Shown: piece by piece, positions 949 through 63,800 of the stretch | Layout: each line of letters begins with the position of its first letter | Position numbering within the stretch: position 1 is the stretch's first letter | NCBI GenBank assembly: GCA_041640595.1 | Contig: JBEPZY010000004.1 | Coordinates: 294,014 to 358,013, forward strand | Length of the DNA: 64,000 nucleotides | Source of the DNA: Gemmatales bacterium | GTDB lineage: Bacteria > Planctomycetota > Planctomycetia > Gemmatales > HRBIN36 | Direction: 5' to 3' | Translations under genes and position numbers: made by a program | The notes under the pieces: model-generated | Seen by the model: the letters and a program-made list of their open reading frames with translations, nothing else | Databases searched by the model: none | What the model was told of the DNA's origin: nothing

Positions 949-1395
949 AATCCTGCTCCCGGTGCGTGAAGACTTTTTCCTGTTCGAGCCGCAGCTGGGT
1001 TTTAGACCCCGGATGCCAGCGGTAGCAGAGCGGCACTCACCCGCCATGCCATAGCTGGCTTTACCAAGCATATTACATTTTTCGTCCCCCGAGAGCGACA
1101 ACCTCTCCCTCGCCAGTCTTTTGTGCGAGCATTCGAAATTCGCAAGCCTCGGCATTGTCTTCGTCGCTAATTGCAAGGAAGTTGCCGGACTCTTGTACAC
1201 GTGCGTTTGAAATTCGCAAGCCTCTGGGCTAGGCTTACGGGCACGACCACCACTCCATCGCCACTCTTGTGGACGTGCATCCTGGCGAAAAGCAGGAGTA
1301 TGTCTGCAAGTTCACTGCGCTTCATCGCCACTCTTGTGCACATGCATTGTCCGTTACAGACGGCGATTCTGCGAATCATCGCATCGCCATCCACC

Positions 1396-1598
1396 AGGAG
1401 CGGCTGACGTAAGCCAGCCGTGGGAAAAGATGCGTACTCGTTGGCGCGAAGCGCGTATCTGCAATGACATCCGCACATGCAGCCAAGAGCGGGGGGCGTA
1501 AGCCCCCCGTGGTGCGCGAACGTACTCGCTCCGGGAAAAACTCGCGCCATTGCAGATGCGTTTCGTTCCCACGGCGGGCTGACGCCCGCCGCTCTTGA
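1396..1598. repeat. REP-like palindrome cluster (3 copies)
   Basis: GAGCGGCTGACGTAAGCCAGCCGTGG, CAAGAGCGGGGGGCGTAAGCCCCCCGTGG and the inverted copy CCACGGCGGGCTGACGCCCGCCGCTCTTG. Confidence 0.85.
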
Positions 1599-1630
1599 TT
1601 GCTGCTTGCGGTGGGTTTGGACGGAGATGA

Positions 1631-1929
1631 TGGTGCGAACGGAATTGTTGCGATGGTTTTTTGCGAAGGAGAAAGGCTGAGAAATTAGCGGTCCGGAACG
1701 GCGCCGGTGCTATGGAAACTGTTGCGATGGTTTTTTGTGGAGACCTGGCATCAGGGCTCCGGTCGGGCGACGTGGGTAAAGCGATGGAAGCGGTTGCGAT
1801 TGTGGCTTTTGCGTGGAAAGGTGCAATAATCAAAATGGAGATGTGCATGCTGAATGCGTGGATTTAGGATTTGTTCTGGGTCTTGGTCCCGCGGTGCAAT
1901 AATCAAAATGGAGATGTGCGTGCTGAATG
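1631..1929. repeat. Repeat-spacer units: degenerate 3-copy array (periods 74, 72) plus a 37 bp direct repeat around a 36 bp unique insert
   Basis: TTGCGAT core at 1648, 1722, 1794; GGTGCAATAATCAAAATGGAGATGTGCRTGCTGAATG at 1820-1856 and 1893-1929. Confidence 0.85.
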
Positions 1930-1963
1930 GCGGGCATGGCTCTGAGCTGATGAGTGGGAAACG

Positions 1964-5311: not shown

Positions 5312-5634
5312 TGCCGGCACGGCTTGTCAGGCCGGTCAGAATCCCGGCCAGGCGTTCTTTTTGCCTGACGGACACGCTCGGCTGGTAAAGCGTGCCGGGG
5401 CATGCATACGATATTTATGGAAAGCCGGCCCCCGTAATCAGCGTCCGTGGGTCTCAGGGCTCGGCGTGTGAATCCGCTACAGAGAAAACGTCGGCCCACG
5501 GGGATCGGATCTGCTGGGGCATAATGCGGGCGCAATGCCTGCGACACTCCTCGAAACTCGGCCCCTCAATCACCCTGACGCAAAATCTGACCGTCGTCGG
5601 TGGCGACTCGGTGGCTGCGACACTACCGAAACTC

Positions 5635-5708
5635 GGCCCCTTAGCCAAGCGGCCTAAGGCAGCGGATTGCAAATCCGCCATTCCCGGGTTCGAATCCCGG
5701 AGGGGCCT
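5635..5708 (+). tRNA. tRNA-Cys (GCA), CCA not encoded
   Basis: Acceptor stem GGCCCCT/AGGGGCC plus discriminator T, anticodon arm GCGGA-TTGCAAA-TCCGC, T-arm CCGGG-TTCGAAT-CCCGG. Confidence 0.96.
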
Positions 5709-5764
5709 CTAACGTTATTGGTTCTGCCCCGCTGGACACCCCCCACCGTAGTTACAGCGCACCA

Positions 5765-6156
5765 CAAGAGCGGCTGGCGTGAGCCAGCCGTGGCAAAAGT
5801 AGCGTGCTCGTCGCTAAGAAGCGCATATCTGCAAAGACATCCGCACGTGCTGCAACCAAGAGCGGCTGGCGTAAGCCAGCCGTGGTGTTCGAACGTACTC
5901 GTTCCGGAAAAGAAACCCGCGCCATTGCAGATGCGTTTCGTTCCCACGGCGGGCTGACGCCCGCCGCTCTTGATTGCCGCTTGGCCGGTCGCCGAAGGAC
6001 GTTCGATTCTGACCGCACGGCGTTTGTTTCCCGTACCACGGCGGGCTGACGCCCGCCGCTCTTGCTTGCCGTGTCGCTGGTCGCCGATCGATGTTCGATT
6101 CTGACCGCACGGCGTTTGTTTCCCGTGCCACGGCGGGCTGACGCCCGCCGCTCTTG
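5765..6156. repeat. REP-like palindrome cluster (5 copies, includes a ~93 bp tandem duplication)
   Basis: Same hairpin family; the inter-REP sequence resembles 1396-1598. Confidence 0.85.
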
Positions 6157-6227
6157 ATGCTCGTTCACCGGACCTACCCGAGTTTTACCGGGCAAGGTAA
6201 AACTGGTGGTGTTTCCGGAAGGCCGGT

Positions 6228-6324
6228 GTCGGTGTTCCTTGATGTTTCTGACTCATCCAAGCTGGACACTGTTCCACGTTGCCGTCTTTGCCCGTCGGTG
6301 TTCCTTCATGTTTCTGACTCATCC
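6228..6324. repeat. 31 bp direct repeat around a 35 bp unique insert
   Basis: GTCGGTGTTCCTTSATGTTTCTGACTCATCC at 6228-6258 and 6294-6324, 1 mismatch. Confidence 0.9.
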
Positions 6325-7136: not shown

Positions 7137-7254
7137 CCCCTGGGCGCGACCTCGTTTCCGGCCGGGTTCGTATCCATAACAATCACGTTACCGCCGACTG
7201 CGCAGCAACTGTGGGAAGCCATCTGTTTGTGGGCGTGTTAAACTGGCTATCACG

Positions 7255-8082
7255 TTACCGCCGATCGCGCAAGTTCAGCTGCTGCATCAGGCGATCCGTG
7301 GCGGTGTAGGCTTCCCGAACCCACTCGACCACCTGATCCGGTTGGGGCGGATATTCCAGTTCGACGCTGATGCTTCCGTCTATGTTGAGGTTTTTGATTT
7401 CTTCGAGGTAAGGCAGGAAGTTGACCACGCCACGACCCGGTGGTAAATCGCCATGCTTCTGGCCATCGCAATCGCTGATGTGGACGTGAATCGCCCAGCC
7501 GCGAAGTTGGCGTAGTTCCTGGGGTCGCACTCCGGCCAGTTGCAGATGGGAAATGTCAATATTAGCCCGCACGGCCGGATGATTGACCTCCTGCAAAAAG
7601 GCCAGTATCCGCTCTACGCTGTTCAGCAACGAGAGCCGAAACGGTTCCAGTTCCAGAGCGATTTGCAAACCGAGCTGTTCGGCAGCATCACCGAGCCGGC
7701 GAACGTTTTCCACGGCCAGACGCCACTGTTCTGCCGGTGGGATCACTTCCTGCTGCCAGAGGTATTCGCCCAGCACCAGAAGCACATTGCTGGCCTGGTA
7801 CTCGTAAGCCAGCTCCAGATACGCCTGGCAGCGCTGCAGGTGAAACCGCTGCACCGACCGGTTGAAATCGGTCAATCCCAGCGCCACACAGGCGATGCTG
7901 ACAATGGGCAGACCGACACGGTCGCATTCCCGCTTGATGCGACAGCGTTCACGGATGTCCATCTCCAGCGGATCGGCAAAGATGTCAATGGTGTCAAAAC
8001 CGATCTCTTTGGTAGTGCGAATTCCCCAGGCGGTATCCCGTCCCGATTGTACCCAAACCGAATTGATCAACCCCAGCCGCAT
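7255..8082 (-). CDS. Sugar phosphate isomerase/epimerase (xylose isomerase-like TIM barrel)
   Basis: ALELEP, NIDISH, HVHISD and SVELE metal-binding motifs; start moved to ATG 8082 (MRLGLINS) with GGGAGAGG upstream. Confidence 0.85.
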   Translation of the reverse strand: MRLGLINSVWVQSGRDTAWGIRTTKEIGFDTIDIFADPLEMDIRERCRIKRECDRVGLPIVSIACVALGLTDFNRSVQRFHLQRCQAYLELAYEYQASNVLLVLGEYLWQQEVIPPAEQWRLAVENVRRLGDAAEQLGLQIALELEPFRLSLLNSVERILAFLQEVNHPAVRANIDISHLQLAGVRPQELRQLRGWAIHVHISDCDGQKHGDLPPGRGVVNFLPYLEEIKNLNIDGSISVELEYPPQPDQVVEWVREAYTATDRLMQQLNLRDRR

Positions 8083-17750: not shown

Positions 17751-17914
17751 GGGTGGGACTCCTTGTTCGGGAGAGAATGCTGAGGCTATTGGGGCGGGAC
17801 TCAGGAACATTTTAGCAAAACGGACGACCGGTCGGAAAGGGCGGCCGCTCTCGGTCGCCACGACGGCGGCCGTGCGAAATATGCGTACTGCATCTGTGGA
17901 TTCGAGACGTTGGC

Positions 17915-18448
17915 CACGGTGCGCTGACACCCGCCGTTCTCGGGGGTGTCCGCTTGCCGCCAAAAGTCGCATTTTCCCCCGTAATCGTGCACCTCGCCAA
18001 CCACGGTGGGCTGACGCCCGCCGTTCTTGCGAACGTGCGTTTGTGCATCGCAAAAATCGTTATTTCGCCGGCAGACGTTCGCACTCCAACACAAGAGCGG
18101 GGGGCGTAAGCCCCCCGTGGCGCCTATAAACGCAATTGCAACGGCCATCCACGCACACGCACACCGTCGGCGATCTGCCGACGAACGACGCTCCTGTCCG
18201 CCGATACGCATTTGCCCGCCCACGGCGGGCTGACGCCCGCCGCTCTTGCGAACGTGCATTTGTGTACCGCGAATGTCGTTATTTTTCAGCCGACCGGCAC
18301 CGTGCAACAGGAGCGGCTGATGTAAGCCAGCCGTGGGAAACGTACCGAATCCGCAGATGGAAACGTGCCCGATCCGCAGGTGGAATACGCATATCACGCG
18401 CGGCGATCGCATTCCCCAACAGGAGCGGCTGCCGTAACCCAGCCGTGG
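17915..18448. repeat. REP-like palindrome cluster (about 6 copies)
   Basis: Alternating-orientation hairpins; spacers shared with 22130-22380. Confidence 0.85.
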
Positions 18449-21979: not shown

Positions 21980-22800
21980 GCCGCCAGCGTGAGCCAGCCG
22001 TGCAACAGCGAGCATCATCGCAAATCGCAAACGCATGTCCGTAACGATCCTCGTGCATGCAACCAGGAGCGGAAGGGCGTAAGCCAGCCGTGGCACACTG
22101 AGTCCGTTGCGAATGCGTTACACTGCCACTTGCGAACGTGCGTTTCTGCATCGAAAAATCGTTTTCTCGCCGGCAAACGGTCGCACTGCACCAAGAGCGG
22201 GGGGCGTAAGCCCCCCGTGGCGCCTATAAACGCAATTGCAACGGCCATCCACGCACACGCATACACACCGTCGGCGATCTGCCGACGAACGACGCTCCTG
22301 TCCGCCGACACGCATTTGCCCGCCCACGGCGGGCTGACGCCCGCCGCTCTTGCGAAGGTGCGTTTGTGCAGTGCGAATGTCGTTTTTCGCAGCGAACGAA
22401 CGTCGTGCAACCAGGAGCGGGGGGCGTAAGCCCCCCGTGGCATGCACTCCGCACGCGAGATCCAAACGCCGATGTTCGTCGCACTGCACTTGCAGATGCG
22501 GTTCCGAAAACCACGGCGGGCTCACGCCCGCCGCTCTTGTGAACGTGCGTTTGTGCACCGCAAAAATCGTTTTTTTCGCCGTTAGACATGCGCATTGCAA
22601 CACAGGGGCGGGGGCGTAAGCCCCCCGTGGGAAACAAACCCCGGCGCAAGTGCGTTACATTACCACCGCGGGCTGACGCTCGGCGCTCTTGGTGGCGTTC
22701 ATTTTCCGGTGAAAGTCGCAGTTCCACCGTAATCGCGTTTCGCTTACCACGGCGGGCTGACGCTCGGCGCTCTTGTAAATGTGCGTTTGTGCAGCGCGAA
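21980..22800. repeat. REP-like palindrome cluster (about 9 copies)
   Basis: Multiple GAGCGG...CGTAAG...CCGTGG units and their reverse complements. Confidence 0.85.
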
Positions 22801-28983: not shown

Positions 28984-29540
28984 GATCCATTGTGCGATCA
29001 GTGACGCTCCGATTCCAGAGTCTGGGCACCAGGCGAACAATCCGACTGGCGGTAGGCGGTTCCATTCCCCAATCAACGAGGCTCCGATTCCAAAGTCTGG
29101 TCAGCAGGCGAACAACGCGACTGGCGGTAGGCAGATCCATTCCCCAATCAGCGAGGCCCCGATTCCAGAGTCTGGGCAGCAAGCGAACAATCCGACTGGC
29201 GGTAGGCAGATCCATTCCCCAATCAACGAGGCCCGGAATCCAGAGTCTGGGCAGCAGGCGAACAATGCGACTGGCGGTAAGGAGATCCATTCCCCAATCA
29301 GCGAGGCCCGGATTCCAGAGTCTGGGCAGCAGGCGAACAATGCGACTGGCGGTAAGAGGATCCATTCCCCAATCAGCGAGGCTGGGATTCCAGAGTCTGG
29401 GCAGTAAGCGAACACCCCGGTCGGCGGTAGGCGGTTCCATTCCCCAATCAACGAGGCCCGGATTCCAGAGTCTGGGCAGCAGGCGAACAATGCGACTGGC
29501 GGTAGGCAGATCCATTCCCCAATCAGCGAGGCCCGGATTC
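28984..29540. repeat. 75 bp tandem repeat, about 7.4 copies
   Basis: Unit starting GATTCCAGAGTCTGGGCAGCAGGCGAAC at 29011, 29086, 29161, 29236, 29311, 29386 and 29461. Confidence 0.95.
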
Positions 29541-29609
29541 GAGACTCTCCTATGTCCGCCGTTCTTTCTGAGCGTTCCGCGTTTGGTGCGCCAGCCCGGC
29601 ACCGTGCAA

Positions 29610-31207: not shown

Positions 31208-31492
31208 ATGGAACTGCTCATTTTTGCCGCCATCATCGGGCTGTGGTTGATTTTGCAAATCTGGGTGTTGCCCAAACTGGGCGTACCGACGTGACTGGGT
31301 GGTGCCTGCCGTCCGAGTTCGGACGAATCGCCCTTATCCATCCAACCAGGCGTTGACGAGCATAACCGCGACCCACGCTCCAAAGGCCGTGTATCCGTCG
31401 GACGGGGCATGGGCAAGCATAACGATCCACACCCCGGCGATGTACCCGCTTCGCCTTCCGAACAGCGCAAGCAGCAACCGGAACTGCATTGA
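31208..31492 (+). CDS. Small membrane protein, candidate selenoprotein (in-frame TGA 31292-31294); 28 aa if the TGA is a stop
   Basis: AAGGA RBS; MELLIFAAIIGLWLILQIWVLPKLGVPT-TGA-LGGAC...; hairpin CGTCCG-AGTT-CGGACG 15 nt after the TGA. Confidence 0.65.
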
Positions 31493-31614
31493 TGGGATAT
31501 ACAGGTTAGGCCTGGTTGACTTCCGAACAGCGCAAGCAGCAACCGGAACCCGCTCGCAAACAAGAAACACTCTCGAACGAATAAGCCCCGAACAGCGTGA
31601 GCAACAGCCGAAAC
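31455..31614. repeat. CRISPR-like mini-array: three 30 bp repeats with two 35 bp unique spacers
   Basis: CTTCCGAACAGCGCAAGCAGCAACCGGAAC identical at 31455 and 31520, degenerate at 31585. Confidence 0.85.
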
Positions 31615-35786: not shown

Positions 35787-35808
35787 AATGGTTGCCTGTG
35801 GGCGGAAT

Positions 35809-35882: not shown

Positions 35883-35964
35883 CTGGCGAACGAGCTGCTG
35901 CTAACCGACGCAACCGGCACCAGCGGCGAGCGTTGGTCCGCTGTGCTGGGGACGGAGAACGAGC

Positions 35965-36282: not shown

Positions 36283-36437
36283 AGCGTAGCAACGTCGAAG
36301 TTGGACGGCATGGCAAACACTACGGGCTGACCAGGCGGTGCAAGCTGTCGGGAGTAAACCCAGCCGGGGTTGCATAATCCGCCGACTTCATCGCCGCCAG
36401 AATCAGACGGCGAAAGATTCAGCGCAGGAGAGCAAGG

Positions 36438-37946: not shown

Positions 37947-38019
37947 TGGCTTGGCCCCATAGTCCGTCTCTTGGTACACGGCCCGCCGTGATTGCATAAA
38001 ACCGGTGGAAAGCGGCCGG

Positions 38020-38330
38020 GCATAGATGTGTGCGTCCGTTGCCGTGTACGGTCGAAACGTCGTGGAGGTTTATGAAGACGGGGAGGCAGTTATAGCAGAT
38101 GTGCGCGCCCGTTTCCGTGTACGGTTGAAACAGTCGCACACCACCAGGCGGTCCAGGAGACTGGCCACCATTTCTGTTTCTGTGTACGGCTGAAAAAGTC
38201 CGCGGTGAAAGCGCACCTCACCTTAGCTGTGATGGCTCGGCCCCGGAGCCGGTTTCTGTTTACGGGGCATGCCGTCATTGCATAAAGTGGATGCGCGTAG
38301 ATGTACGTCCGTTTGTGTGTAGGGGGCATA
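38020..38330. repeat. Degenerate CRISPR-like array, repeats ending in GAAAC
   Basis: GT(G/T)TACGG core at 38044, 38117, 38182 and 38258; best copy AGATGTGCGCGCCCGTTTCCGTGTACGGTTGAAAC. Confidence 0.55.
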
Positions 38331-38332
38331 CC

Positions 38333-38446
38333 CTGCGGAACACGCCCGGCAATGGTTCACCACGAATGCCGTTTTCTTGGTACACAAATGCGACGAACGT
38401 AATTTCTGCGGAACACGCCCGGCAATGGTTCACCGCGAACGCCGTT
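38333..38446. repeat. ~41 bp direct repeat around a 32 bp insert (period 73)
   Basis: CTGCGGAACACGCCCGGCAATGGTTCACC at 38333 and 38406. Confidence 0.88.
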
Positions 38447-38590
38447 CGGCTCGATGGCACCTGCGACATTTCCGACACACAACCTCCAAATTCACGTTCG
38501 TGCCACACAAGAGCGGGGGGGCGTAAGCCCCCCGTGGTTATCCATTACGTATGCGCGGCGGCGATCGTCAACACAACGTGGGCAGTCTCT

Positions 38591-39268
38591 CCGGGCGAGA
38601 CCATGCGATGGATTGCGGACTATGGGCGACTTGCTCGCCGAATCTCTCCTCAACTTGCCAGACCATCCCACGGATTGCGGGCTGTAGGCGAAGCGACTGC
38701 CTCGCCGGATTTCTCCACAGCCGGCGAGACCGTGCGATGGATTGCGGACTATGGGCGACTTGCTCGCCGAATCTCTCCTCAACTTGCCAGACCATCCCAC
38801 GGATTGCGGGCTGTAGGGGAAGCGACTGCCTCGCCGGATTTCTCCAGAGCCGGCGACACCACGCGATGGATTGCGGACTATGGGCGACTTGCTCGCCGAA
38901 TCTCTCCACGGCTTGCCAGAGCATGCGACGGATTGCGGGCCGCAGGGCAAGCGACTGCCTCGCCGGATTTCTCCACAGCCGGCGGCACCATGCGATGGAT
39001 TGCGGACTATGGGCGACTTGCTCGCCGAATCTCTCCACAACTTGCCAGACCATGCGATGGATTGCGTATTGCACGCGAACTGACCTCCTCAGCGGATTTC
39101 TCCACAGCCCGCGAGACCACGCGAAGAATTGCGGACTATGGGCGACTTGCTCGCCGAATCTCTCCACAACTTGCCAGACCATGCAATGGATTGCGGGCCG
39201 CAGGGGAAGCGACTGCCTCGCCGGATTTCTCCACAGCCGGCGAGACCGTGCGATTGATTGCGGAGGGC
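38591..39268. repeat. 129 bp tandem repeat, about 5 copies, each made of two related halves
   Basis: ATTGCGGA motif near 38611, 38740, 38869, 38998, 39127 and 39256. Confidence 0.95.
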
Positions 39269-39504
39269 ACACTGGCGGGTATAATGGCCATCAACGGGAG
39301 CGAGTGTGCCGAGTGTGTCGGCAGGTGTCGGCTGGGCGGTAACGCTGAGCATAGCGCGGACGGTGCCCCAGCCAGGAACGTGCACGGCCTGTCGGGAAGT
39401 GCCGGCTGGGCGGAGACGCTGCGGATGAGGCTGACCGCGTGCCAGGAACGAGTGTGCCGAGTGTGTCGCCGGGTGCGGCTGGGCGGTAAGCACTGTAGCG
39501 ATAG

Positions 39505-39840
39505 TCGCCTGTGACATGGCTTTGGCATGACGTCGCCTCCGAGCCGGCCGAGCAAACAACGCAGGGAGGGTCGGCTATGACATCGCTTGGGCACTAAGTC
39601 GCCTCTGAGTCGGCCGAGCAGGCAACGCCGCGAAAATCGCCTATGGCATCGCTTCGGCACTAAGCCGCCTCTGAGCCGGCCGAGCAGGCAACGCTGCGAA
39701 AATCGCCTATGACATCACTTCGGCACTAAGCCGCCTTTGACGCAGCCGAGCAAACAACGCCGCGAAAATCGCCTATGATATCGCTTGGGCACTAAGTGGC
39801 CTCTTAGCCAGCCGAGTAGGCAATGCGGCGAAAGTCGTCT
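39505..39840. repeat. 66 bp tandem repeat, 5 copies
   Basis: TCGCCTATGACATCGC-like unit starts at 39505, 39571, 39637, 39703 and 39769. Confidence 0.92.
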
Positions 39841-39958
39841 GCGATACAGCAGCCAGAAGGTCGCGGGTTGCAACGAGGGTCGCCTATGACGCAGCAGCCA
39901 GAGGTCGGAACAGGGCTGGCCGGCCGGAGGGTCCGCTAGGTTGCAGCGAGGGTCACCT

Positions 39959-42559
39959 ATGATGCAGCAGCCACAGGGTCGCGGATTTCAGGCAGAGGGA
40001 CACGGGTTGCAGCGAGAGGAGCGCGGGTTGCAGCCGGAAGGTCGCGGGTTGCAGGCGGTCGTGGACTTTTTGCGACGGAACTACGGCTGGGGGCTCGACC
40101 ACGAAATCGGCCAGGGCGGGTTCGGCGTGGTGTATCGGGAAGTCGTGGATGGCGTCGAACGGGCCGTCAAAATCAGCCGGTTTTCGCTGGAAGAAATGGG
40201 GGCTAGTCCGGGCAACGCGAACGATGTGCAGGCGGCGGTGCAACGCGAACTCGAAGCCATCGAGTTGCTGCGTCGGGTCGGCAACCATCCGCACGTGTTG
40301 ACGCTGATTCGCTACGAAATTGTGCTCGGCCACCTGGTTACCGTCTGGGAACTGGCCAGCGAGGGGACGTTACTCGACCGGCTCAAGGAGCATCAGCGGC
40401 AAAACGGACAATGCGGATTGCCGTTGGATCAATTGATGCCGTGGATGGAACAGGCGGCGGAAGGCATCGAGTTTCTCAACAGCCGCGGCATTTTCCACCG
40501 CGACATCAAGCCGCAGAACCTGTTTCTGGTGGGCGGGCAGGTGAAGGTGGGCGATCTCGGATTTCTGAAGCTGGCGGGGCTGAGCACAGTGTCCCAGACG
40601 GGCATGGGCACGGTTGGCTATCTGCCGCTGGAGGCGTATCCGCGGAGTGCGAACGAGAAGGGTCAGTTGCATCGCACGATAGATGTGTACGGACTGGCGG
40701 CGACGTATGTGCATCTGCGGACGGGCAAGCCGCCGTTTGGCACGACCCCGCACGAGATCACCGCTCGTCAGCAACGCGGTGAGCCGTGCACGGAGGGTAT
40801 GACCGCGGCGGAGGCGGAATGGGTGCGGCAGGCGTTATCGCCTCGGCCCAACGACCGCCCCACCTCGGCTAAGAGCTTCGTCCAGCAACTCGAAAGCCGA
40901 CTGATGCTCGGCCAGATGACGACCAGGCCGGCCGTTGTCGCACAGGTGCCGGATTTACCGTCGCTCGATGCCGTCCAGGTCGGGCCAGTGCAGCCACGGG
41001 AGCATCGTCCTACGCTATTGCCGCCGGTGCCTGAAGACCTGGCGAGTTTGCAGGGGCAATTTCTCGCACTCACGGAGGCCATCGAGCAGGTGGAAGCGGA
41101 ATCGCATCCCGACCTGCGACCGGTTCGTGCTGCCCTGGAGCAAGCCGAACAAACATTGCGGCAAGCGTTCTTGGAAAGGAAAGCGGAACTGGACAAACTG
41201 CCCTTGCCGCCGGGCGTGAATCGGGAGCTGGTGCAGCAACTCTACCAGGAATTGCGGAAGGGCGAGTCGTTGCCGCCGAGTGCGTTTCTGCGCTACTGTC
41301 CTGAAAGCGGGCGGTGGGCGTTTTTCCAGTGGCTGTTGCAGGCGAAGAGCGTGGCGGGCAGTGTGGCGGACATCGAACGCAAGCTGGCCGAACTGCGACA
41401 ACAATGGTCGGCGAAGAAGCAGCAATTACTGGCCCGGTTGCATAGTCAGCGGCAGCAGGTCTGGCAGCAGCTGGAGCGTCGGCAACGCGAGGATTTGCGG
41501 GAGTGCTGGTCGCAGGTGGAACGCGGCATGGCATCGGTGCCTGGCGTGTTGCCGCTGGAGGTGTGGGTGCGTTACGGCCCGGAACTGAGCCAGCGCTACC
41601 TCGGCTGGGAGGAGACCCAACTCCTGACTATCGCGGAGGAGAGATGGCGCGCTCCGCTACTCCCGGTGCTGAGGGGGCACGCGTGGGCGGTCAATAGCGT
41701 CGCGGTAACGCCCGATGGCAAATACATCGTTTCGGGAAGTGATGACCAAACGGTGCGGGTGTGGGAGCTGGCGACGGGGCAAGAAGTACGGCGGTTCAGG
41801 GCGGGGCTTTTGAGCGCGGTCAAAACCCTCGCGGTGACGCCCGATGGGAAATATGTCGTTTCGGGCATGGACATCAACGGCACGGTGCGTTTGTGGGAGC
41901 TGGCGACGGGGAAAGTAGTGCGGCGGTTCAGGGGGCACCGGGTCGGGGTCAATAGCGTCGCGGTGACGCCCCATGGCCGCTATGTCGTATCCGGAGGCTG
42001 GGACGGAACGGTGCGTTTGTGGGAGCTGGCGACGGGGCAAGAAGTGCGGCGGTTCACGGGGCACGAGGATTGGGTCAGGAGCGTCGCGGTAACGCCCGAT
42101 GGGAAATACGTCGTTTCGGGAAGCAGGGACGGAACGGTGCGGGTGTGGGACCTGGCGGCGGCGCAGGAAGTGCGGCGGTTCACGGGGCACTGGGGTGTGG
42201 TCAGGAGCGTGGCGGTGACACCCGGTGGGAAATACGTCGTTTCCGGAAGCGAGGACAAAACGGTGTGTGTGTGGGACCTGGCAACGGGGCAGGCAGTGCG
42301 GCGGTTCACGGGGCACGAGAGTTTGGTCAATAGCGTCGCGGTGACGCCCGATGGCAAATACGTCGTTTCGGGAAGCAGGGACCTCACGGTGCGTGTGTGG
42401 GACCTGGCGACAGGGAAAGAAGTGCGGCGGTTCACGGGGCACGCGGGTTGGGTCACCAGCGTCGCGGTGACCCCCGATGGCCGATACGTCGTTTCGGGAA
42501 GCGATGACAAAACGGTGCGGGTGTGGTACATCGGCGATTTGCGCAAACAGGCGCGATGA
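39959..42559 (+). CDS. Ser/Thr kinase, coiled coil and seven WD40 repeats
   Basis: GQGGFGVVY, AVK, HRDIKPQN, DLG; C-terminal GH..WV.SVAVTPDGKYVVSGS repeats; start placed at ATG 39959 (GAGGG upstream). Confidence 0.9.
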   Translation: MMQQPQGRGFQAEGHGLQREERGLQPEGRGLQAVVDFLRRNYGWGLDHEIGQGGFGVVYREVVDGVERAVKISRFSLEEMGASPGNANDVQAAVQRELEAIELLRRVGNHPHVLTLIRYEIVLGHLVTVWELASEGTLLDRLKEHQRQNGQCGLPLDQLMPWMEQAAEGIEFLNSRGIFHRDIKPQNLFLVGGQVKVGDLGFLKLAGLSTVSQTGMGTVGYLPLEAYPRSANEKGQLHRTIDVYGLAATYVHLRTGKPPFGTTPHEITARQQRGEPCTEGMTAAEAEWVRQALSPRPNDRPTSAKSFVQQLESRLMLGQMTTRPAVVAQVPDLPSLDAVQVGPVQPREHRPTLLPPVPEDLASLQGQFLALTEAIEQVEAESHPDLRPVRAALEQAEQTLRQAFLERKAELDKLPLPPGVNRELVQQLYQELRKGESLPPSAFLRYCPESGRWAFFQWLLQAKSVAGSVADIERKLAELRQQWSAKKQQLLARLHSQRQQVWQQLERRQREDLRECWSQVERGMASVPGVLPLEVWVRYGPELSQRYLGWEETQLLTIAEERWRAPLLPVLRGHAWAVNSVAVTPDGKYIVSGSDDQTVRVWELATGQEVRRFRAGLLSAVKTLAVTPDGKYVVSGMDINGTVRLWELATGKVVRRFRGHRVGVNSVAVTPHGRYVVSGGWDGTVRLWELATGQEVRRFTGHEDWVRSVAVTPDGKYVVSGSRDGTVRVWDLAAAQEVRRFTGHWGVVRSVAVTPGGKYVVSGSEDKTVCVWDLATGQAVRRFTGHESLVNSVAVTPDGKYVVSGSRDLTVRVWDLATGKEVRRFTGHAGWVTSVAVTPDGRYVVSGSDDKTVRVWYIGDLRKQAR

Positions 42560-43150
42560 TGGGCCGATCCCCCGCACTCGCAGCGTAAATGAGCAAGACA
42601 GCGACCATCGGGCATGTTGTCGGCTTGGCGGTCATGCGTGTGCTCGCCGCACGGATCAGCAAGACGGCGATCTCCTGGCGCACACGTGGCCCGGATGACC
42701 GGCGTGGTCAGTTACGGTTCGTAGCTCGGGTTTGGCTGGCGATAGTGAATCCAGTCCGCCAGCGAGCTGCTCTCATGGTGTTACGGATGCACAGTGTTAC
42801 AGTCGGGATGGCTGGCGATAATGAATCCAGTGCCGCCGGCATGACCGGCGTGGTCAGCACGGTTCGCCAGCAGCCACACGGGAGAGATGGGCTTCTGTAC
42901 CACGGGTGCAAGGCCCCTGACAGCCCGTCAGTACGGTTGGCCCACGCAGCGGCACGCGACAGCACGACACGAAGCCGTTATGGAAGCTGGGGCGAGGCAC
43001 GATTAGTACGGTTCACCAGCAGCCACACGCGACAGACTGTGAACAGGCCGCTCCCGACGAACAACAGATTTTGCGACGGCCTGCGACGATTGGTTATCAC
43101 CCCGTTACCGGGAGCTGAGTCCGAGCACGCCGAACTGCGCACCATGCGTC

Positions 43151-43246
43151 GCCTATGTCGCTGAGGAAACAGGGGCGAGTGGCCGTTACGTTTGGGCGGG
43201 GCGTGGGGCTGGTCCTGCCTACGTTGCTGCGGAAACCGGGGCGAGT
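43151..43246. repeat. 30 bp duplication of the GH3 gene 3' end around a 36 bp insert
   Basis: GCCTATGTCGCTGAGGAAACAGGGGCGAGT versus GCCTACGTTGCTGCGGAAACCGGGGCGAGT. Confidence 0.88.
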
Positions 43247-44916
43247 TCCGTGAGCACGGGAAGTTGCTCGCGGAAGGAGAAGTCGGGCACCAGGACGGGA
43301 TGCTTGTACTGCTCCGGAGTGCCGCCGGTTCGGCGTAAGCGCTGGCGATCCCAATCGTGCAGAGCGTTAGCGGCGACCACCAGCACACGGATGCTGCCGA
43401 GGCGACTTTTGCGTTTCTCCTCGTATTCGGAGTTGGCCTGCCGCAATCGGCGGTCGAGCGCGTCGGCCAGCCGAAGCAGATCCGCCTCGCTCACCGGCTC
43501 GTTCTTCTCAACAAACAGGCCGTAGTAAGGGCGTTCGTCGTCCCAGCACGGGGCGAGCGTGTAGTTGGTCAGAGCGAGATCGAGTTCGGCCAGGGCTTGC
43601 CGCATCGCCTCGCTGACCTGGAAGGCAGAGAGTTTTTCACCGGTGATGCTGGCAAAATGGCTGCCCTTATTGAGAAAGGCGATCATCGGCGTGCGGTGAT
43701 AGAAGCCGGTGACGCGTACCACGTCGAAGATGTTGTAACGGTACAGACCGTAGGCGGTGGTGAGGATGAGGAAGTAATCGCGGCCTTCCTGCACTTCGTC
43801 CACGGTGAGCACGGTTGGTTGCGGCGACTCGATTTCGTCAACGGGAATAAACTCGAAAAAGTGGCTGGTGATGTCGAGCACGCCGCTGGAGGTATTGTCC
43901 TCGATGGGGATGCTGAAACGTCCTTCGCTGGCCAGCAGGCCCAGATCGCGCACCGGAAGATTGTCGAAGTAACGGGGATAGAGTCGCAAATAGGCACCGA
44001 CACTGCCGCCCGTCCAGTTGCCGAGCATGGCCAGGCTTGGCCAGACGTCCACCGGTCGCAGGGTTCCGGTGCGTTCAGCAAGCCGGTCGAGTTCACGAGC
44101 ACGACGGCGGTGTCGGCCAAGACGAGGGCGTAAGGCCGAGCGAATCTCCGGCGGCACCTGCACGCCCGACCAGAGTCCGCCGTCGAACAGGTCGCGAATG
44201 AGCTGTTCCTTATAGCGATCCAGCGTGCGGGCCAGGTTGATGATGGTGCTGGGATTGGCGGAAATGATTAGCCCCAGCGGTCGCGGCAAACTCAAGCGGA
44301 GGGCGACGTAGTATTTGGCCTGAATGTCGCGGATTTTCGCTGTGCAGGCCGGCATGCAATAAACCCAGCGAATCACCCGACCCTGCATTTGTGCGGTCAA
44401 TCCGCTGACACTGCCGCAGGGAATTCCCGCTTCGGTGCGAAACTCCTCCCAATCGCTGACCAGTTGCAGGATCGGTCGCAGCAGCGCATGGGGATGCGCC
44501 TGGTACACATGCCAGCCCCAAACCGTCCAACCCCGGCGGTAGTCAGCGAGATACTGGTCGGTCACGGGGATGAATTTGCGGCTGGCCGTAGTACCGCTGG
44601 TCAAAGCGAACATGAGCACACGGTCATCGCCCAAGAGGGCATCGAGTTTGCCGCGTTTGACCTGCTCGATGTACGGCTCAAAATCCTCGTAGCGGCGAAT
44701 GGGGAGGTGCTTGCGAAAATCCGCCAGGGTGCGAATCTGTGAGAAATGATGTTCTCGGCCGAATTGCGTCTGACTTGCACGTGTGATAATACGCTGCAAC
44801 AACGCTGACTGAACCTCCCGCGGTGAATGCGTAGCCTGGTCGAAGGCTTGCGCCCAGCGGCGTGCCTGCCGTTTTGCAAAATGGGCCAGAATCTTCCGCG
44901 CTAACCACAGGAACAT
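43219..44916 (-). CDS. GH3 family acyl-acid amido synthetase-like protein
   Basis: TSGTT...KFIP, ASEG, FFEFIP, GLYRYNIFD, GEK motifs. Confidence 0.88.
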   Translation of the reverse strand: MFLWLARKILAHFAKRQARRWAQAFDQATHSPREVQSALLQRIITRASQTQFGREHHFSQIRTLADFRKHLPIRRYEDFEPYIEQVKRGKLDALLGDDRVLMFALTSGTTASRKFIPVTDQYLADYRRGWTVWGWHVYQAHPHALLRPILQLVSDWEEFRTEAGIPCGSVSGLTAQMQGRVIRWVYCMPACTAKIRDIQAKYYVALRLSLPRPLGLIISANPSTIINLARTLDRYKEQLIRDLFDGGLWSGVQVPPEIRSALRPRLGRHRRRARELDRLAERTGTLRPVDVWPSLAMLGNWTGGSVGAYLRLYPRYFDNLPVRDLGLLASEGRFSIPIEDNTSSGVLDITSHFFEFIPVDEIESPQPTVLTVDEVQEGRDYFLILTTAYGLYRYNIFDVVRVTGFYHRTPMIAFLNKGSHFASITGEKLSAFQVSEAMRQALAELDLALTNYTLAPCWDDERPYYGLFVEKNEPVSEADLLRLADALDRRLRQANSEYEEKRKSRLGSIRVLVVAANALHDWDRQRLRRTGGTPEQYKHPVLVPDFSFREQLPVLTELAPVSAAT

Positions 44917-45029
44917 GACGCCTGGTTCTTCTCCCGTCGCATTGGCTGCAGACCGCACCGATCAGCGTCTCGCCCTGGGTGGGCAAGAGCACACTGTGCC
45001 GGTCACCCTGGCTAACGTCGGCAGCCGAA

Positions 45030-51410: not shown

Positions 51411-52411
51411 GCTGCGTCAATCCTGTTTGAATCCTTCGCAAGTTCAAAGAGAACCAATATAGTCAATTTACTCGCCCAGGGCAACTGGAAAATTTCGCCG
51501 TCGAGGTCTTGCCTCTTGTGGAAAGGAAAGCCGTGCGTTCGGTTCGCCCGCGAGAGCCGACAAGGTTTTGCAACAGGGGATTAACATTCTGGCGTTCGGT
51601 CAGAGAAGACACTCGTGATTACTGGCGGCCTATCACCTTGGACCGCCGACGCTCGTTTTCAGAGCAACTTCAGTGCGCCCCGATAACCAATTGCGACCAG
51701 GAGTGGCCAGCATCCCACCATAATTTGGGGAGCGGGTCTGCAACTTACGGTACGAAAGAGATAGCTCTGCAAGTTTTGGAGCATCAGCCCGGCATAATTT
51801 GAGAAGGGGGTCTGCAACCGCAATGACTCACCTCTTGCACGGGCACGTGGCGTGTCCGGAGCGGTGCCTGGGCAGCCTGGCGTGAGGGAAAACGCAGCTG
51901 TAAATGCTGTTTGGATAGCTTCGCCGTACTGCTCCAGCGCTGCGCCGACGAAGGCCACTGCGATCGCATTGCCACAATCCCCGGTGGCCAACGGGCCCGC
52001 TCTTTTTGCGTGTGCGAATGCCTCTCTGCGGGCTAGGTGTGAAGCTCCCAGTGCATGCCGGCCCTCACGCGAGGCTGGTGCTCCTGGTTACGGTGCGAGT
52101 AACGTTGGCTGCTTGCCACCCCACCAGCGGGCCGACAGAAGCGTCTTCTGCATCCATCTACCGCGGGCCAAACAAAAAGTAGCGAGGTATAAACCGGATA
52201 ACCGATACTTTCAGTAGCCTGGCTTACCGAGAGCCAAAGGGGTACCCCTCCGCCAGAGCCACCGCATTGGCGAATCGAACTCGTTGAGTCTGCGCCGTGG
52301 TGGCTGCGGGGCGACGGTGCGGAACCGCGAATGACCGCCGGCTAGTTGTGCATCGGCTGTTTCGCGCAAAAGCGGCTCCAAAGGGTCTTCGGCGTGGAAC
52401 AGGGACTGCAC

Positions 52412-61652: not shown

Positions 61653-61702
61653 ACGCCGTTTTCGGTACCCTGGGCAAAATCGGTAAAAAGGATGTTTTTT
61701 TC

Positions 61703-61731
61703 TTGACTTGCGCTATTTGCTTTTGTAAACT
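61703..61731 (+). promoter_or_regulatory. Candidate sigma70 promoter
   Basis: TTGACT-N17-TAAACT in an AT-rich patch. Confidence 0.6.
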
Positions 61732-62130
61732 CTAGTGAGCAGCCCGCAGAGCCAGGTTCGCTCTGCACCGGTGAATGCCGGTAGTGGCTGCGGGAACCGA
61801 CAAGCCCCAAACTGCCCTCACGTGGCCGAGCCGCTTAGCAGACCCCGTGTCGTTCTGCGAAAGCGTCGGCCCTGAATTACCCGCTTCGGTCAAGCGGTCG
61901 AGGGCGCTGAGGGCCAATCTCATGGCGAGCTTATCCACGCCGCGATGGCGCTGCGCCCCGTGTGCGCGAGCAAGCTGTTGCTATCGGGCCGACCCCAGGC
62001 CCGGGTGGGTCTTTCCCCTCTACCCACCTCGACTCGCCTATCGTCGGGTTATGCGGGCAAGGAAGTTTCGCCTGCTGGAGCAGGGCCAGCCATCAGTCTT
62101 CTCCCCGCAACAGCCGCGAGGTGATGGTGC

Positions 62131-63579
62131 ATGCCCCAGCATCGCTACGCTCTGATTGCGGACCATCCGCAGCTGATTGAGACGGCCCGCTGGGAATTGA
62201 GACGACTGGCCGGTTCCAGCTCCCGGTTTTCCGAAACGGTGGAGGGAGGGTCTGCGTCTCGCTCGGCCGTGATGCCGGAGAACTGGCCTGTGGTGAGCTG
62301 GAATGCTGCCAGTTCGTTGCTGCAGGCTTGGCAGGCCAGTCTGGTGCTCGGTATCGCTGACCCCGCCGAAATCCCACTCGCCCACCGACTGGTCCAGGAG
62401 ATCACCCTGCGGCGATTGCCGTTTGTCGTGGTCGCGCTCGTGGCCGAGTCTTGCTGGTCGGAGGTGCAGGAGTGGGCACGGTACGGGTTGCGGCTCTTGC
62501 TCTGGCCCCGGGATCTGGCCGGCCTGACACCAGCATTGCGCCGCCACCGCGAGCATCCCCGCGAACTGGAACTGGCACGTTTTCCCGAAGGTACACTCGA
62601 ACAGCAAATCGCTTTGCGACTGGTTCCTTACACCCCTTCGCTACTTCCTCTGGTCGAGAAACTGGCGCTGGCAGCCCGGCACGATGTCACGGTTCTGCTG
62701 ACCGGTGAAACGGGCACCGGGAAAACTTACCTGGCGCGGCTGATCCACGAATTTTCCTCTCGTGCCAAGGAACGTTTCCTCCATGTGCCGTGCGGCGCCC
62801 TGGCTCCAAATCTGATCGAAAGCGAACTGTTCGGCCACGTCCGAGGTGCCTTCACCGGAGCTGACCGCAACCGTCCCGGCAAATTCGCAGCTGCCGGGCA
62901 TGGCACACTTCTGCTCGACGAAATTGACGCTTTGCCCTTGGAACAGCAGGCCAATTTACTCCGCGTGGTCGAAACCGGTGAATATGAGCCGGTCGGCAGC
63001 AACGAAACTCACAAGACCACTTGCCGACTCATTGTGGCCAGCAATCGCAATCTCGCCGAGGAAGTTCGCCGCGGTCGGTTCCGCGAAGACCTGTATTATC
63101 GGCTCAACGTGATGTCGTTCCATCTGCCGCCTTTGCGTGAACGTCCGGAAGATATTGAGCCGCTGGTGCGAAACATGGCGGCCCGCTTTTGCGCCCGCTT
63201 CCACAAAGAGCTGTTCGACGTGAGCTCGGAAGCCCTGAGCATTCTCGAGACCTACCACTGGCCGGGCAACGTCCGCGAACTGGAAAATGCCATTCAGCAT
63301 GCCGTGCTGGTCAGTCGCGGTCCGCTGCTGTTGCCGGAACATTTGCCCGACTCGGTTCGCCAGCACGCCGAACAGCACAGCAACGGCAACCAGCTCCAGG
63401 AAAGCCGCGATGGCCTGAGCTACAACCGCGAGTTGCTGGAACGCACCATCATTTTGCGGGCCCTTTCGCAGCATGGTTTCAGCCGTACCCGCGCTGCCCA
63501 CGAACTGGGTATCAGCCGCGTGACGTTGTATAAGAAGATGAAAAAGTACGGCCTGCTTCCTCGCACCAGCCACGAGTAA
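62131..63579 (+). CDS. Sigma-54-dependent transcriptional activator (AAA+, Fis-type HTH) with an atypical N-terminus
   Basis: GETGTGKT, ESELFGH, GAFTGA, FREDLYYRL, WPGNVREL, LGISRVTLYKK. Confidence 0.93.
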   Translation: MPQHRYALIADHPQLIETARWELRRLAGSSSRFSETVEGGSASRSAVMPENWPVVSWNAASSLLQAWQASLVLGIADPAEIPLAHRLVQEITLRRLPFVVVALVAESCWSEVQEWARYGLRLLLWPRDLAGLTPALRRHREHPRELELARFPEGTLEQQIALRLVPYTPSLLPLVEKLALAARHDVTVLLTGETGTGKTYLARLIHEFSSRAKERFLHVPCGALAPNLIESELFGHVRGAFTGADRNRPGKFAAAGHGTLLLDEIDALPLEQQANLLRVVETGEYEPVGSNETHKTTCRLIVASNRNLAEEVRRGRFREDLYYRLNVMSFHLPPLRERPEDIEPLVRNMAARFCARFHKELFDVSSEALSILETYHWPGNVRELENAIQHAVLVSRGPLLLPEHLPDSVRQHAEQHSNGNQLQESRDGLSYNRELLERTIILRALSQHGFSRTRAAHELGISRVTLYKKMKKYGLLPRTSHE

Positions 63580-63800
63580 ACGCTGCGACCGTGGGCGGCC
63601 CCCGGGAGGTGCAGCTATTGACAGATATCTGCTTCCTCGCTCCAGCCACGAGTAAACGCTGCGTCCGTGGGCGGCCCCGGGAGGTACAGCTATGACAGAT
63701 ATCTGCTTCCTCGCTCCAGCTACGAGTAAACACTGCGTCACCACCGGACGGGGCTGACCGCTTGTCTATCCCTAAGCTGCTTGCTCGCACCAGCCACGCG
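63553..63800. repeat. Four copies of the activator gene's stop region (periods 76, 74, 74)
   Basis: CTGCTTCCTCGCWCCAGCYACG at 63553, 63629, 63703 and, degenerate, at 63777. Confidence 0.9.

Follow-up and report, generated by a model that had tools for sequence, protein, structure and literature searches.

The window, i.e. the whole 64-kb stretch of DNA analysed here, holds a series of loci at which a short local sequence is directly repeated around an unrelated insert. It belongs to a 4.45 Mb metagenome assembly of 42 contigs from a hot-spring bacterium, labelled G000 in the comparison with relatives. The genes adjoining these loci include an FHA-GAF histidine kinase gene (1964), a tRNA-Cys gene (5635-5709), a kinase-WD40 gene starting at 39959, a GH3 gene (43219-44958, minus strand) and a sigma-54 activator gene. 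An Rfam search of the window returned two tRNAs and the 6S RNA only, and neither CRISPR-DR nor any other RNA family was found on the repeat loci. These loci, hereafter called scars, have no assigned strand and are as follows:

1126..1224: weak 74-nt-class scar, 25-nt repeat and 49-nt insert, copies 88% identical
1253..1347: 67-nt-class scar, 28-nt repeat, 39-nt insert and second repeat
1632..1737: older 74-nt-class scar, detectable repeat of 32 nt, 84%
1820..1929: 73-nt scar, 37-nt repeat and 36-nt insert, 1 mismatch, upstream of the FHA-GAF histidine kinase gene
5541..5645: 75/76-nt scar, second copy taking in the first bases of tRNA-Cys
6228..6324: 66-nt scar, 31-nt repeat and 35-nt insert, 1 mismatch
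7182..7271: weak 67-nt-class scar, detectable repeat of 23 nt
28984..29548: whole-unit tandem array, 75 nt x 7.4, full units 83-87% alike
31455..31614: neo-array, three copies of a 30-nt repeat (1 and 2 identical, the third 73%) and two unrelated 35-nt inserts
38024..38131: 73-nt scar, 35-nt repeat with a GAAAC end and 38-nt insert
38111..38200: 65-nt-class scar, detectable repeat of 25 nt, overlapping the scar at 38024
38333..38446: 73-nt scar, 41-nt matching stretch and 32 nt, 2 mismatches
39316..39421: older 74-nt-class scar inside an array at 39297-39486
39498..39837: whole-unit tandem array, 66 nt x 5.2, 82%
39866..39977: 73-nt scar, 39-nt repeat and 34-nt insert, second copy holding the kinase-WD40 start
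42733..42831: weak 76-nt-class scar, detectable repeat of 23 nt
43151..43246: 66-nt scar, 30-nt repeat and 36-nt insert, second copy overlapping the stop end of the GH3 gene
51708..51818: 74-nt scar, 37-nt repeat and 37-nt insert, copies 81% identical, old
63553..63829: neo-array, four repeats of about 36 nt at steps of 76, 74 and 74

The initial annotation had counted about 20 such loci. Nine strict scars, the weaker ones at 1126, 1632, 5541, 7182, 38111, 39316 and 42733, and the arrays at 63553, 28984 and 39498 come close to that figure. The six loci it had named were all found again as repeat-insert-repeat structures, with sizes of 37+36 at 1820, 31+35 at 6228, 30+35 at 31455, 30+36 at 43151, 39+34 at 39866 and 37+37 at 51708. 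Of the repeats that it had described as ordinary host sequence, four were verified: those at 43151 and 63553 overlap the stops of the GH3 and sigma-54 activator genes, the one at 39866 overlaps the start of the kinase-WD40 gene, and the one at 5541 overlaps the 5' end of tRNA-Cys. At 63553, the first repeat contains the final codons and stop of the activator gene; unit duplication has left inserts 1 and 2 nearly identical, and insert 3 is unlike them. Since the two inserts at 31455 are unrelated, this site was struck twice. The array at 28984..29548 appears to be a CRISPR-sized unit that was amplified later.

Period classes, geometry and location of the scars

The entire genome, with its native CRISPR arrays masked, was scanned for direct repeats displaying at least 23 identities out of 28 at each offset from 30 to 130 (101 offsets). 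This sensitive scan produced 1184 segments, 219 of which lie at 65-68 nt and 283 at 72-76 nt. Most of the remaining offsets hold 0-10 segments each, with at most 17 flanking the peaks, and a control shuffled in 7-mer blocks gives 0 segments at all 101 offsets. Counted as loci under the same masking, 114 have a period of 65-68 nt and 124 a period of 72-76 nt, for 0-9 per other period outside the 87-94 range. The two narrow period classes proposed from the window are borne out genome-wide, and the distribution is sharply peaked rather than flat.

The duplicated length has its mode at 30-31 nt for periods of 65-68 nt (class A) and at 36-39 nt for periods of 72-76 nt (class B). A strict set of 258 scars was retained, 153 in class A and 105 in class B. 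The repeat differs from locus to locus, a property claimed for the window that extends to the genome, and encloses an unrelated insert of 35-38 nt. When the copies of the strict scars are compared at the repeat offset, identity is 0.81-0.94 within the repeat and 0.20-0.33 beyond it, for a background of 0.264. The inserts are not decayed copies of their flanks, as identity outside the repeat stays at the background level. The copies have mostly diverged by 2-6 mismatches. Similarity over the whole unit, as expected of a tandem duplication or minisatellite, is absent from the 258 strict scars and present in a minority of arrays, e.g. 28984 and 39498. The non-coding DNA of this genome thus holds several hundred small scars, and their scale is exceptional.

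Most scars are intergenic (135 of 153 in class A, 86 of 105 in class B), while 76.5% of the genome is called coding by a crude in-house gene caller. Among the 28 scars located at gene edges, a stop is contained in 21 and a start in 7. All nine 'coding' scars have a period divisible by 3, four of them being low-complexity coding repeats (Met-rich or Gly-rich); the approximately five plausible cases that remain are suggestive of in-frame selection within genes. Clustering of scars near CRISPR loci was also considered and dropped, the enrichment being only 2-3 fold with uncorrected p values of 0.02-0.04 in 2 of 12 comparisons.

The best identity of ectopic to native repeats is 11.9/30 (11.4 for random intergenic sites) and 14.4/37 (13.9 for random sites). 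No likeness above random intergenic sites was detected, barring 4 of the 153 class-A entries, which correspond to two orphan mini-arrays with native-like repeats. Being unique to their locus and unlike the native repeats, the scar repeats do not qualify as canonical arrays. The first repeat base is a G at 49% (class A) and 43% (class B) of the ends, versus 28.6% in the background. Class A shows no enrichment of the native end hexamers, and a TGAAAC-like 3' end is found in 14 of the 105 class-B scars versus 4.9% of controls (p = 0.0006).

Native arrays, insert donors and related genomes

Two native arrays are present. Array A comprises 344 copies of a 30-nt repeat and 341 spacers of 35 nt (36 spacers), 36 nt (165), 37 nt (108), 38 nt (26), 39 nt (5) and 40 nt (1). 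It adjoins a type I-B module composed of cas1, cas2, cas4, cas3, cas5 and cas7, plus cmr2-6. Array B comprises 246 copies of a 37-nt repeat with spacers ranging from 35 to 39 nt (12 of 35 nt, 81 of 36 nt, 99 of 37 nt and 37 of 38 nt), and adjoins cas1, cas2 and a separate 542-aa group-II-like reverse transcriptase (RT). The dimensions predicted for the native arrays, 30+35/36 and 37+36, were therefore found, with a spacer mode of 36 for the 30-nt repeat and modes of 36-37 for the 37-nt repeat. The genome contains two cas1 genes in all, one per native array, on contigs C1 and C8 and thus outside the window; the Cas1-like integrase anticipated by the initial annotation exists, and its observation that the window holds no cas gene is confirmed. 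For 149 ectopic class-A scars, a chi-square test detects no departure of the periods from those of array A (p = 0.32). Class B and array B cover the same range with a different shape (p = 0.0025), in part because of coding low-complexity repeats at periods 72 and 75.

A match elsewhere in the genome at E < 1e-3 was obtained for 29 of the 258 inserts, the other 229 having no detectable donor. The comparison of inserts with potential donors and the search for a PAM, both suggested initially, gave positive results. Four inserts copy ordinary host DNA, namely a gene on C1 (33/33), a gene on C3 (34/36), a gene on C2 (30/31) and, at 33/34, a stretch that we take to be 23S rRNA. Among 31 protospacers, 26 show 5'-CCN as the native I-B PAM, and CCN lies flush with one donor end in three of the four host donors on which this PAM test is based. 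In addition, the ectopic insert at C2:174386 overlaps a native array-A spacer at 30/31 with an offset of 2-3 nt. An insert-free, single-copy paralog, in which the left flank, one repeat copy and the right flank are contiguous, exists for 14 of the 258 scars. In one dispersed element, two copies were struck independently and bear different inserts. The empty sites that had been called for were consequently obtained as paralogs within the genome, and no orthologous empty allele was found in the strain contigs.

Relatives were sampled at 242-400 kb each. The congener G001 has only the RT-type cas1 with a 37-nt native repeat; in 242 kb, its 25 segments all lie at 69-76 nt and none at 65-68 nt, two of the 25 belonging to the native array, and about 20 scars are present. 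The congener G002, with the same cas content, has no segment at 65-68 nt in 373 kb, for about 18 expected at the density of G000, and two ectopic 37/38-nt scars. Both cas1 types and both scar classes occur in G003. Neither cas1 nor scars were found in G010 and G027 (359 and 400 kb). G004 and G019 also have cas1 and yet showed no scars, in 376 kb for the former and in 320 kb distant from the cas loci for the latter. The scar classes track the cas1 types across the sampled relatives, and the presence of cas1 is not sufficient for scars.

Genomes of the same genus are 72-79% identical even in coding DNA, with fragmented synteny. A metagenome scan with 30-nt words returned two contigs, one identical to the window and another, 97.3% identical, which carries the scars at 38024, 38111 and 38333. 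No orthologous filled/empty polymorphism was seen in the latter contig or in four public runs over 30000-38590, and none of these four runs displays, over the same interval, a joint skipping exactly one unit at a scar. Joints at 31807-31883 have sides of only 22 nt and fall within dispersed repeats. The contigs of three related-strain runs stop at or before 31484 and are uninformative for 31455. One run, from a different study, has contigs that match 30000-32398 and 32830-38534 without a single difference; they include three scars and span 31455. The assembly support on which the initial annotation had made its proposal depend is thus provided by this independent run and by the 97.3%-identical contig.

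Origin of the scars and relation to known systems

The scars very probably result from ectopic spacer integration by the genome's own I-B Cas1-Cas2(-Cas4) and Cas2-RT-Cas1 modules. The proposal of one or two promiscuous integrases inserting short DNA throughout the genome is supported by sizes equal to those of the native arrays, by donors with a PAM, by insert-free paralogs and by the co-occurrence with cas1. The mechanism can be derived from established Cas1-Cas2 chemistry. The integrase would attach a 35-38-nt prespacer by its two 3' ends, one to each target strand, with the two joins a fixed distance apart, presumably 30 bp with the I-B enzymes and 37 bp with the RT-linked ones. Filling of the gaps would then duplicate the host sequence between the joins, so that the insert ends up between two local repeats at a period of 65-68 or 72-76 nt. 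The enzymes seem to gauge the repeat length in the absence of the native repeat sequence, their only apparent target preferences being for G as the first base of the repeat on each strand and, in the 37-nt class, for a GAAAC-like end. The surviving events would be those that spare genes, either by being intergenic or by duplicating a gene end. Scars struck again may become neo-arrays, and whole-unit amplification may give rise to the 66- and 74/75-nt minisatellites.

Slippage or unequal crossing-over could in principle have created tandem duplications of about 66 and 74 nt that decayed to partial repeats, as in MIRU-like minisatellites. Whole-unit arrays do exist at these periods (28984-29548, 39498-39837 and a 150-nt double unit present three times at C2:229093), and matches over at least 61 nt account for 15 of 219 class-A and about 81 of 281 class-B segments of the sensitive scan. 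These arrays are however better read as scars amplified later; at C2:229093, two different inserts alternate between copies of a single repeat. Neutral decay cannot spare half a unit, as would be needed for identity to drop to background just outside the 30- or 37-nt repeat, and copying errors provide no reason for two periods equal to those of the native CRISPR arrays. They also leave unexplained the inserts copied from distant genes with a PAM and the lack of class A in congeners devoid of the I-B module, so that this origin is very unlikely.

Another mobile element or integrase, inserting pieces of about 36 nt with target duplications of 30 or 37 bp, would be in keeping with target sites unlike the native repeats and with a window free of cas genes, the cas1 matches being restricted to C1 and C8. 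It is nevertheless highly improbable given that the only two Cas1 homologues each possess an array of exactly matching dimensions, that donors have the I-B PAM, that one insert overlaps a native spacer and that the scar classes follow the cas1 types among relatives. To our knowledge, no other known integrase gives target duplications as long as 30-37 bp, those of casposases being about 14-15 bp.

The units could also be functional rather than accidental, either as regulatory direct repeats or as small horizontally acquired CRISPR arrays. Some repeats do coincide with the start or stop of a gene, three or more repeat copies with differing inserts are present at 11 class-A and 8 class-B loci, and the two orphan mini-arrays have native-like repeats. 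Such a role is scarcely credible for repeats that are unique to each locus, whose copies have mostly drifted, that coincide with no RNA family of Rfam in the window and that have insert-free paralogs; the repeats found at gene ends are merely duplicated gene ends. Finally, the probability of an assembly or binning artefact, conceivable in a 42-contig metagenome assembly where contig C15 (GC 0.498) is probably a foreign element binned in, is negligible in view of the scars recovered from the independent run and the 97.3%-identical contig, and of cas loci borne by two long contigs that are themselves scarred.

Non-canonical (off-target) spacer integration by Cas1-Cas2 creates 'neo-CRISPR' loci (Nivala, Shipman & Church, Nat Microbiol 2018, as cited in PMC7054753, PMC6698737 and bioRxiv 10.1101/148544), and was demonstrated in E. 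coli overproducing the type I-E Cas1-Cas2, the case for two other species being circumstantial only (bioRxiv 10.1101/148544). As far as these sources go, engineered E. coli supplies most of what is known of the phenomenon. Searches of a full-text collection that leaves out most subscription journals gave no description of many such scars in a natural genome. The scars share with the E. coli loci a spacer-length insert, a repeat-length duplication, a non-CRISPR site and repeated hits leading to small arrays. They differ by their natural occurrence, in hundreds within one genome rather than from an overproduced I-E enzyme, by the involvement of two modules (I-B and RT-linked) with a ruler each, by targets with almost no sequence requirement and by the availability of donors with a PAM, insert-free paralogs and classes tracking the cas1 of congeners.

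Canonical adaptation by I-B systems with Cas4 or by RT-associated Cas1 is comparable in insert length, duplicated length, CCN PAM (I-B class) and first base G; in the 30-nt repeat of Pyrococcus furiosus, G1 and C30 are among the positions tested for integration (PMC6698737). Unlike canonical adaptation, the scars lack a leader, duplicate a sequence that is not a CRISPR repeat, mostly hold one insert and tolerate self-derived inserts. MIRU/VNTR minisatellites are likewise intergenic, with units of 50-130 nt, copy-number amplification and gene-end overlap, whereas most scars repeat only 30 or 37 nt of a 66- or 74-nt step, the remainder being unrelated and sometimes traceable to a distant donor.

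We lean slightly towards a broader view, in which off-target spacer integration has been a major source of natural mutation in this lineage. Two sequence-independent rulers of 30 and 37 bp would have installed several hundred host- or invader-derived fragments, extended gene ends and seeded new arrays and minisatellites, and the RT-linked module may record fragments of host transcripts ectopically. If so, integrase specificity and self-spacer uptake would be recorded naturally in this genome. Native arrays cannot hold such a record, since self-targeting spacers located there are lethal. On the reading of the scars as ectopic integration, this genome and the congener with about 20 scars in 242 kb provide hundreds of natural events from two modules, from which one can directly read target rules, the precision of the rulers, PAM use and how often self DNA is taken up. 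The same events explain concretely how some bacterial intergenic minisatellites and de novo CRISPR arrays could originate. Insertions arising from CRISPR adaptation can be substantial in number, a point relevant to what it costs a cell to carry CRISPR. A simple test is applicable to other genomes, namely whether the period of local repeats equals that of the native array.

A further period class, at 87-94 nt, which the initial annotation had not set apart, is distinct from the scars. Its 171 loci belong to one dispersed hairpin family whose repeats are not locus-specific, the element consisting of a GC-rich hairpin of about 29 nt together with about 63 nt and recurring at many loci, often in tandem. 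It resembles REP/BIME-like elements as a dispersed palindrome. A search of the genome, which is 95% complete, for the Y1/RAYT transposase (PF01797) gave no match. Some hairpins of this family served as integration targets.

Scars in the window and periods across the genome

The initial annotation had proposed that promiscuous CRISPR-type integrases inserted short DNA at about 20 intergenic loci of the window. Upon re-inspection of the sequence, the six loci it named proved real, each being a local stretch directly repeated around an unrelated insert. Such a structure is called a scar hereafter and is described by its repeat and insert lengths in nt, the sum of which is the period. Together with a looser listing and several arrays, the named loci match the total of ~20.

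1820: scar, 37+36
6228: scar, 31+35
31455: scar, 30+35, plus a diverged third repeat copy
39866: scar, 39+34
43151: scar, 30+36
51708: scar, 37+37
1126, 1253, 1632, 5541, 7182, 38024, 38111, 38333, 39316, 42733: extra loci from the looser listing
63553: four-copy array
28984-29548: whole-unit array, unit of 75 nt
39498-39837: whole-unit array, unit of 66 nt
43219-44958, minus strand: GH3 gene, its stop within a scar repeat
62131-63579: sigma-54 activator, its final codons and stop within a scar repeat
39959: start of the kinase-WD40 gene, within a scar repeat
5635: first bases of tRNA-Cys, within a scar repeat

The inclusion of gene ends in the repeats was thus borne out at the last four features. 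At 31455, two repeat copies are young and identical and one is old, which is what two hits at this site would leave. The assembly is supported by another study, one run of which yielded contigs covering 30000-32398 and 32830-38534 with 0 differences and spanning three scars.

The search was extended to the whole assembly of the genome under study, G000 (4.45 Mb, 42 contigs, numbered C1 onwards), in which the window occupies C4:294014-358013. Perfect direct repeats (14 nt or longer), counted at every offset from 15 to 300, concentrate at offsets 65-68, 72-76 and their multiples, a large share of this signal being due to two very large genuine CRISPR arrays. After masking of these native arrays 582 loci are left, with 114 at 65-68, 124 at 72-76, 171 at 87-94 and 0-9 for each other period. 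A more sensitive scan (at least 23/28 matches) returned 1184 segments, including 219 at 65-68 and 283 at 72-76; a 7-mer-block shuffle of the genome returned zero segments at all 101 offsets. The presence of the named loci, the peaked periods and the empty shuffle confirm the observation of scars with CRISPR geometry, and we hold with high confidence that their interpretation as off-target spacer integration is supported as well.

In a period-by-length table, the stretch that matches measures 28-33 nt (mode 30-31) at periods 65-68 and 36-39 nt at periods 72-76. Strict sets were defined as class A (period 65-68, repeat 26-35 nt, n=153) and class B (period 72-76, repeat 33-42 nt, n=105). Since these sets were chosen by length, the non-circular evidence is the length distribution of the table. 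Mean identity at the repeat offset over the 258 strict scars is 0.81-0.94 within the repeat and 0.20-0.33 on either side of it, for a background of 0.264; the insert is therefore unlike either flank. Decay of whole-unit tandem duplications is ruled out for the strict scars, as the insert matches neither flank.

Scar density is 8-12 per Mb on contigs C6 and C7, versus 78-103 per Mb on C2, C3, C4 and C8; the low values may stem from regional variation or from binning.

Native arrays and adaptation modules

The native CRISPR systems lie outside the window and have the dimensions of the scars, with repeats of 30 and 37 nt. The Cas1-like integrase called for by the initial annotation is present as well, in the form of two cas1 genes each adjoining one array.

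C8:1-21081, extending onto C10: array A, 30-nt repeat x 344; 335 of 341 spacers of 35-38 nt (mode 36), the other 6 of 39-40 nt
C1:359749-377936: array B, 37-nt repeat x 246; spacers mainly of 36-37 nt

Array A is flanked by cas2, cas1 (best NCBIfam model, type I-B), cas4, cas3, cas5 and cas7, followed by cmr2-6, and array B by cas2, a separate 542-aa group-II-intron-like reverse transcriptase (RT) and cas1. The periods of class-A scars outside the arrays (65:20, 66:69, 67:42, 68:18) are indistinguishable from those of native array A (chi-square p = 0.32). Class B and native array B cover an equal range but differ by a surplus of class-B units at 72 and 75 (p = 0.0025), to which coding low-complexity repeats contribute.

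At the leader end of array B (C1:359749-360500) several adjacent spacers overlap each other, which indicates repeated uptake from one short region. The spacers of this array are also C-rich (C 0.32, G 0.25). Overlap and base composition would each fit an RT-linked module that takes up one strand preferentially or starts from RNA.

Relatives were sampled with the scan used for G000, and as related genomes they do not constitute independent trials.

Scar segments in sampled genomes (genome; relation; cas1 content; sample; result)
G000; genome under study; both cas1 types; random 380 kb; 26 segments at 65-68 and 32 at 72-76
G001; same genus; one cas1, RT-type, 37-nt native repeat; 242 kb; 25/25 segments at 69-76 (2 of them native array), none at 65-68 or other periods
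G002; same genus; one cas1, RT-type, 37-nt native repeat; 373 kb; 0 at 65-68 (~18 expected at G000 density), two ectopic 37/38-nt scars
G003; same genus; cas1 of both types; 354 kb; both scar classes
G004; same family; one cas1; 376 kb; 0 scars
G010; same family; no cas1 found; 359 kb; 0 scars
G019; same order; two cas1; 320 kb away from the cas loci; 0 scars, and one 42+30 unit 670 bp before the array
G027; same order; no cas1 found; 400 kb; 0 scars

From these results, the scar class tracks whichever adaptation module a genome has. Presence of a module alone is insufficient for scars, as seen in the G004 and G019 samples.

In G001, four scar segments (L132, that is G001:C17, 3746-4279) lie less than 3 kb from cas1 and the native array, and G003 has a scar at 1.1 kb from its native array. 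Enrichment of scars around the CRISPR loci of G000 is weak.

Empty sites, targets and insert donors

Because some scars lie within dispersed repeated sequence, the genome holds its own controls. The empty sites expected under integration exist: 14 of the 258 scars have a paralog that runs from the left flank through a single repeat straight into the right flank (52 HSP pairs), for example:

C1:320840 (38+37): empty at C3:~426149
C3:417921 (39+36): empty at C8:~38320
C9:75166: empty at C8:~175698
C10:64665 and C1:1188417: each empty at C1:~12346

Each of the last two represents a separate hit, with its own insert, on a different copy of one element. Filled paralogs exist for 37 scars, which were duplicated together with their element.

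Most scars are intergenic (135 of 153 in class A, 86 of 105 in class B) in a genome that is 76.5% coding according to a crude gene caller. Twenty-eight scars span a gene end, the stop in 21 and the start in 7; a gene ending within the duplicated stretch retains one intact copy. Repeat copies usually differ by 2-6 mismatches and are identical in just 13 scars, so most events are old, and the presence of 38024, 38111 and 38333 in a strain contig of 97.3% identity is consistent with this age.

At least three repeat copies with unrelated inserts occur at 11 class-A and 8 class-B loci. Small new arrays of this kind include 31455 and 63553 in the window and C1:328961 elsewhere. At C2:229093 a repeat-insert1-repeat-insert2 structure was amplified x3 as a 150-nt unit, and we infer that the 75-nt and 66-nt whole-unit arrays of the window arose by scar amplification in the same way. 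A 129-nt tandem array at window 38594-39264 (5.2 copies, 87-98% identical), whose unit has internal repeats at 62- and 67-nt steps, may likewise be an amplified double unit from two scars.

The repeat differs at every listed locus of both classes, and it resembles the native repeat, at best, just as much as random intergenic sites do (both orientations, shifts up to 3 nt). The exception is four of the 153 class-A entries (one at C3:328836, the others on C20); these are orphan mini-arrays whose repeats resemble the native one, and they were dropped from later class-A counts. The first repeat base, read on each strand, is G in 49% of the ends in class A and 43% in class B, for a background of 28.6%. 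A TGAAAC-like 3' end is found in class B only (14/105 scars versus 4.9% of controls, p = 0.0006). GAAAC terminates both native repeats, and the 30-nt repeat begins with G on either strand.

The orphan mini-arrays at C3:328836 and C20:1210-1480 carry degenerate native 30-nt repeats (26/30 and 23/30), and a spacer of the former aligns with contig C15 (31/34), where the PAM is CCG. Off-target origins were reportedly proposed for some mini-arrays in a 2020 orphan-array study.

Of the 258 inserts, 29 have a match at another genomic position (E < 1e-3), in many cases another copy of a dispersed element that had been filled before. Four inserts correspond to ordinary host sequence with unrelated flanks:

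C1:732923: in a gene, 33/33
C3:406663: in a gene, 34/36
C2:57231: in a gene, 30/31
C5:166631: 33/34, a stretch that is probably 23S rRNA

Contig C15 (9585 bp, GC 0.498 versus ~0.60 for the genome) probably represents a virus or plasmid that was binned with the host contigs. Thirty-one array-A spacers match it, most of them leader-proximal and most matching one and the same strand. These spacers signal a recent burst of adaptation and define the native I-B PAM, CCN being found 5' of 26/31 protospacers. In three of the four host donors, CCN directly borders the copied stretch on one side; as its chance is ~0.16-0.25 per donor and n=4, this is suggestive. The ectopic insert at C2:174386 overlaps a native array-A spacer (30/31, offset 2-3 nt), which indicates that one invader, or two very similar ones, supplied DNA twice, once to the proper array and once to an off-target site. 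A second ectopic insert is similar to C15 (28/30).

In mechanism the scars correspond to off-target Cas1-Cas2 integration, which is shown in E. coli overproducing the two proteins and has circumstantial evidence in two other species (bioRxiv 10.1101/148544). A copying-error origin is disfavoured by the agreement with the native arrays, by the insert donors and by the pattern among relatives. A full-text literature search, with most subscription journals outside its coverage, found no published natural genome with many such scars. The event type is known and is found here in nature, on an unprecedented scale and with two rulers operating simultaneously.

Hairpin family and other features of the window

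Periods of 87-94 nt belong to one dispersed family, in which a GC-rich hairpin of ~29 nt is joined to ~63 nt of recurring sequence; it has 171 loci genome-wide, often in tandem. It is outside the CRISPR-geometry finding. The stems show compensatory variants, and copies usually come in tandem pairs with a spacing of 79-93 nt. A search of the G000 genome for a Y1/RAYT transposase gave no match. Some of these hairpins served as integration targets. Copies in the window are:

1392-1512, 5762-5885, 5944-6158, 17914-18043, 22644-22780, 27099-27230, 29868-30004: hairpin family

A 6S RNA (Rfam RF00013, 59.9 bits) is located at window 35516-35705 on the plus strand, shortly upstream of tRNA-Arg (35809-35883). 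In a related-strain contig (L115:2259-2300, aligning with window 35812-35822), the 5' end of tRNA-Arg bears a 22-nt tandem duplication which is absent from the window and lacks CRISPR dimensions.
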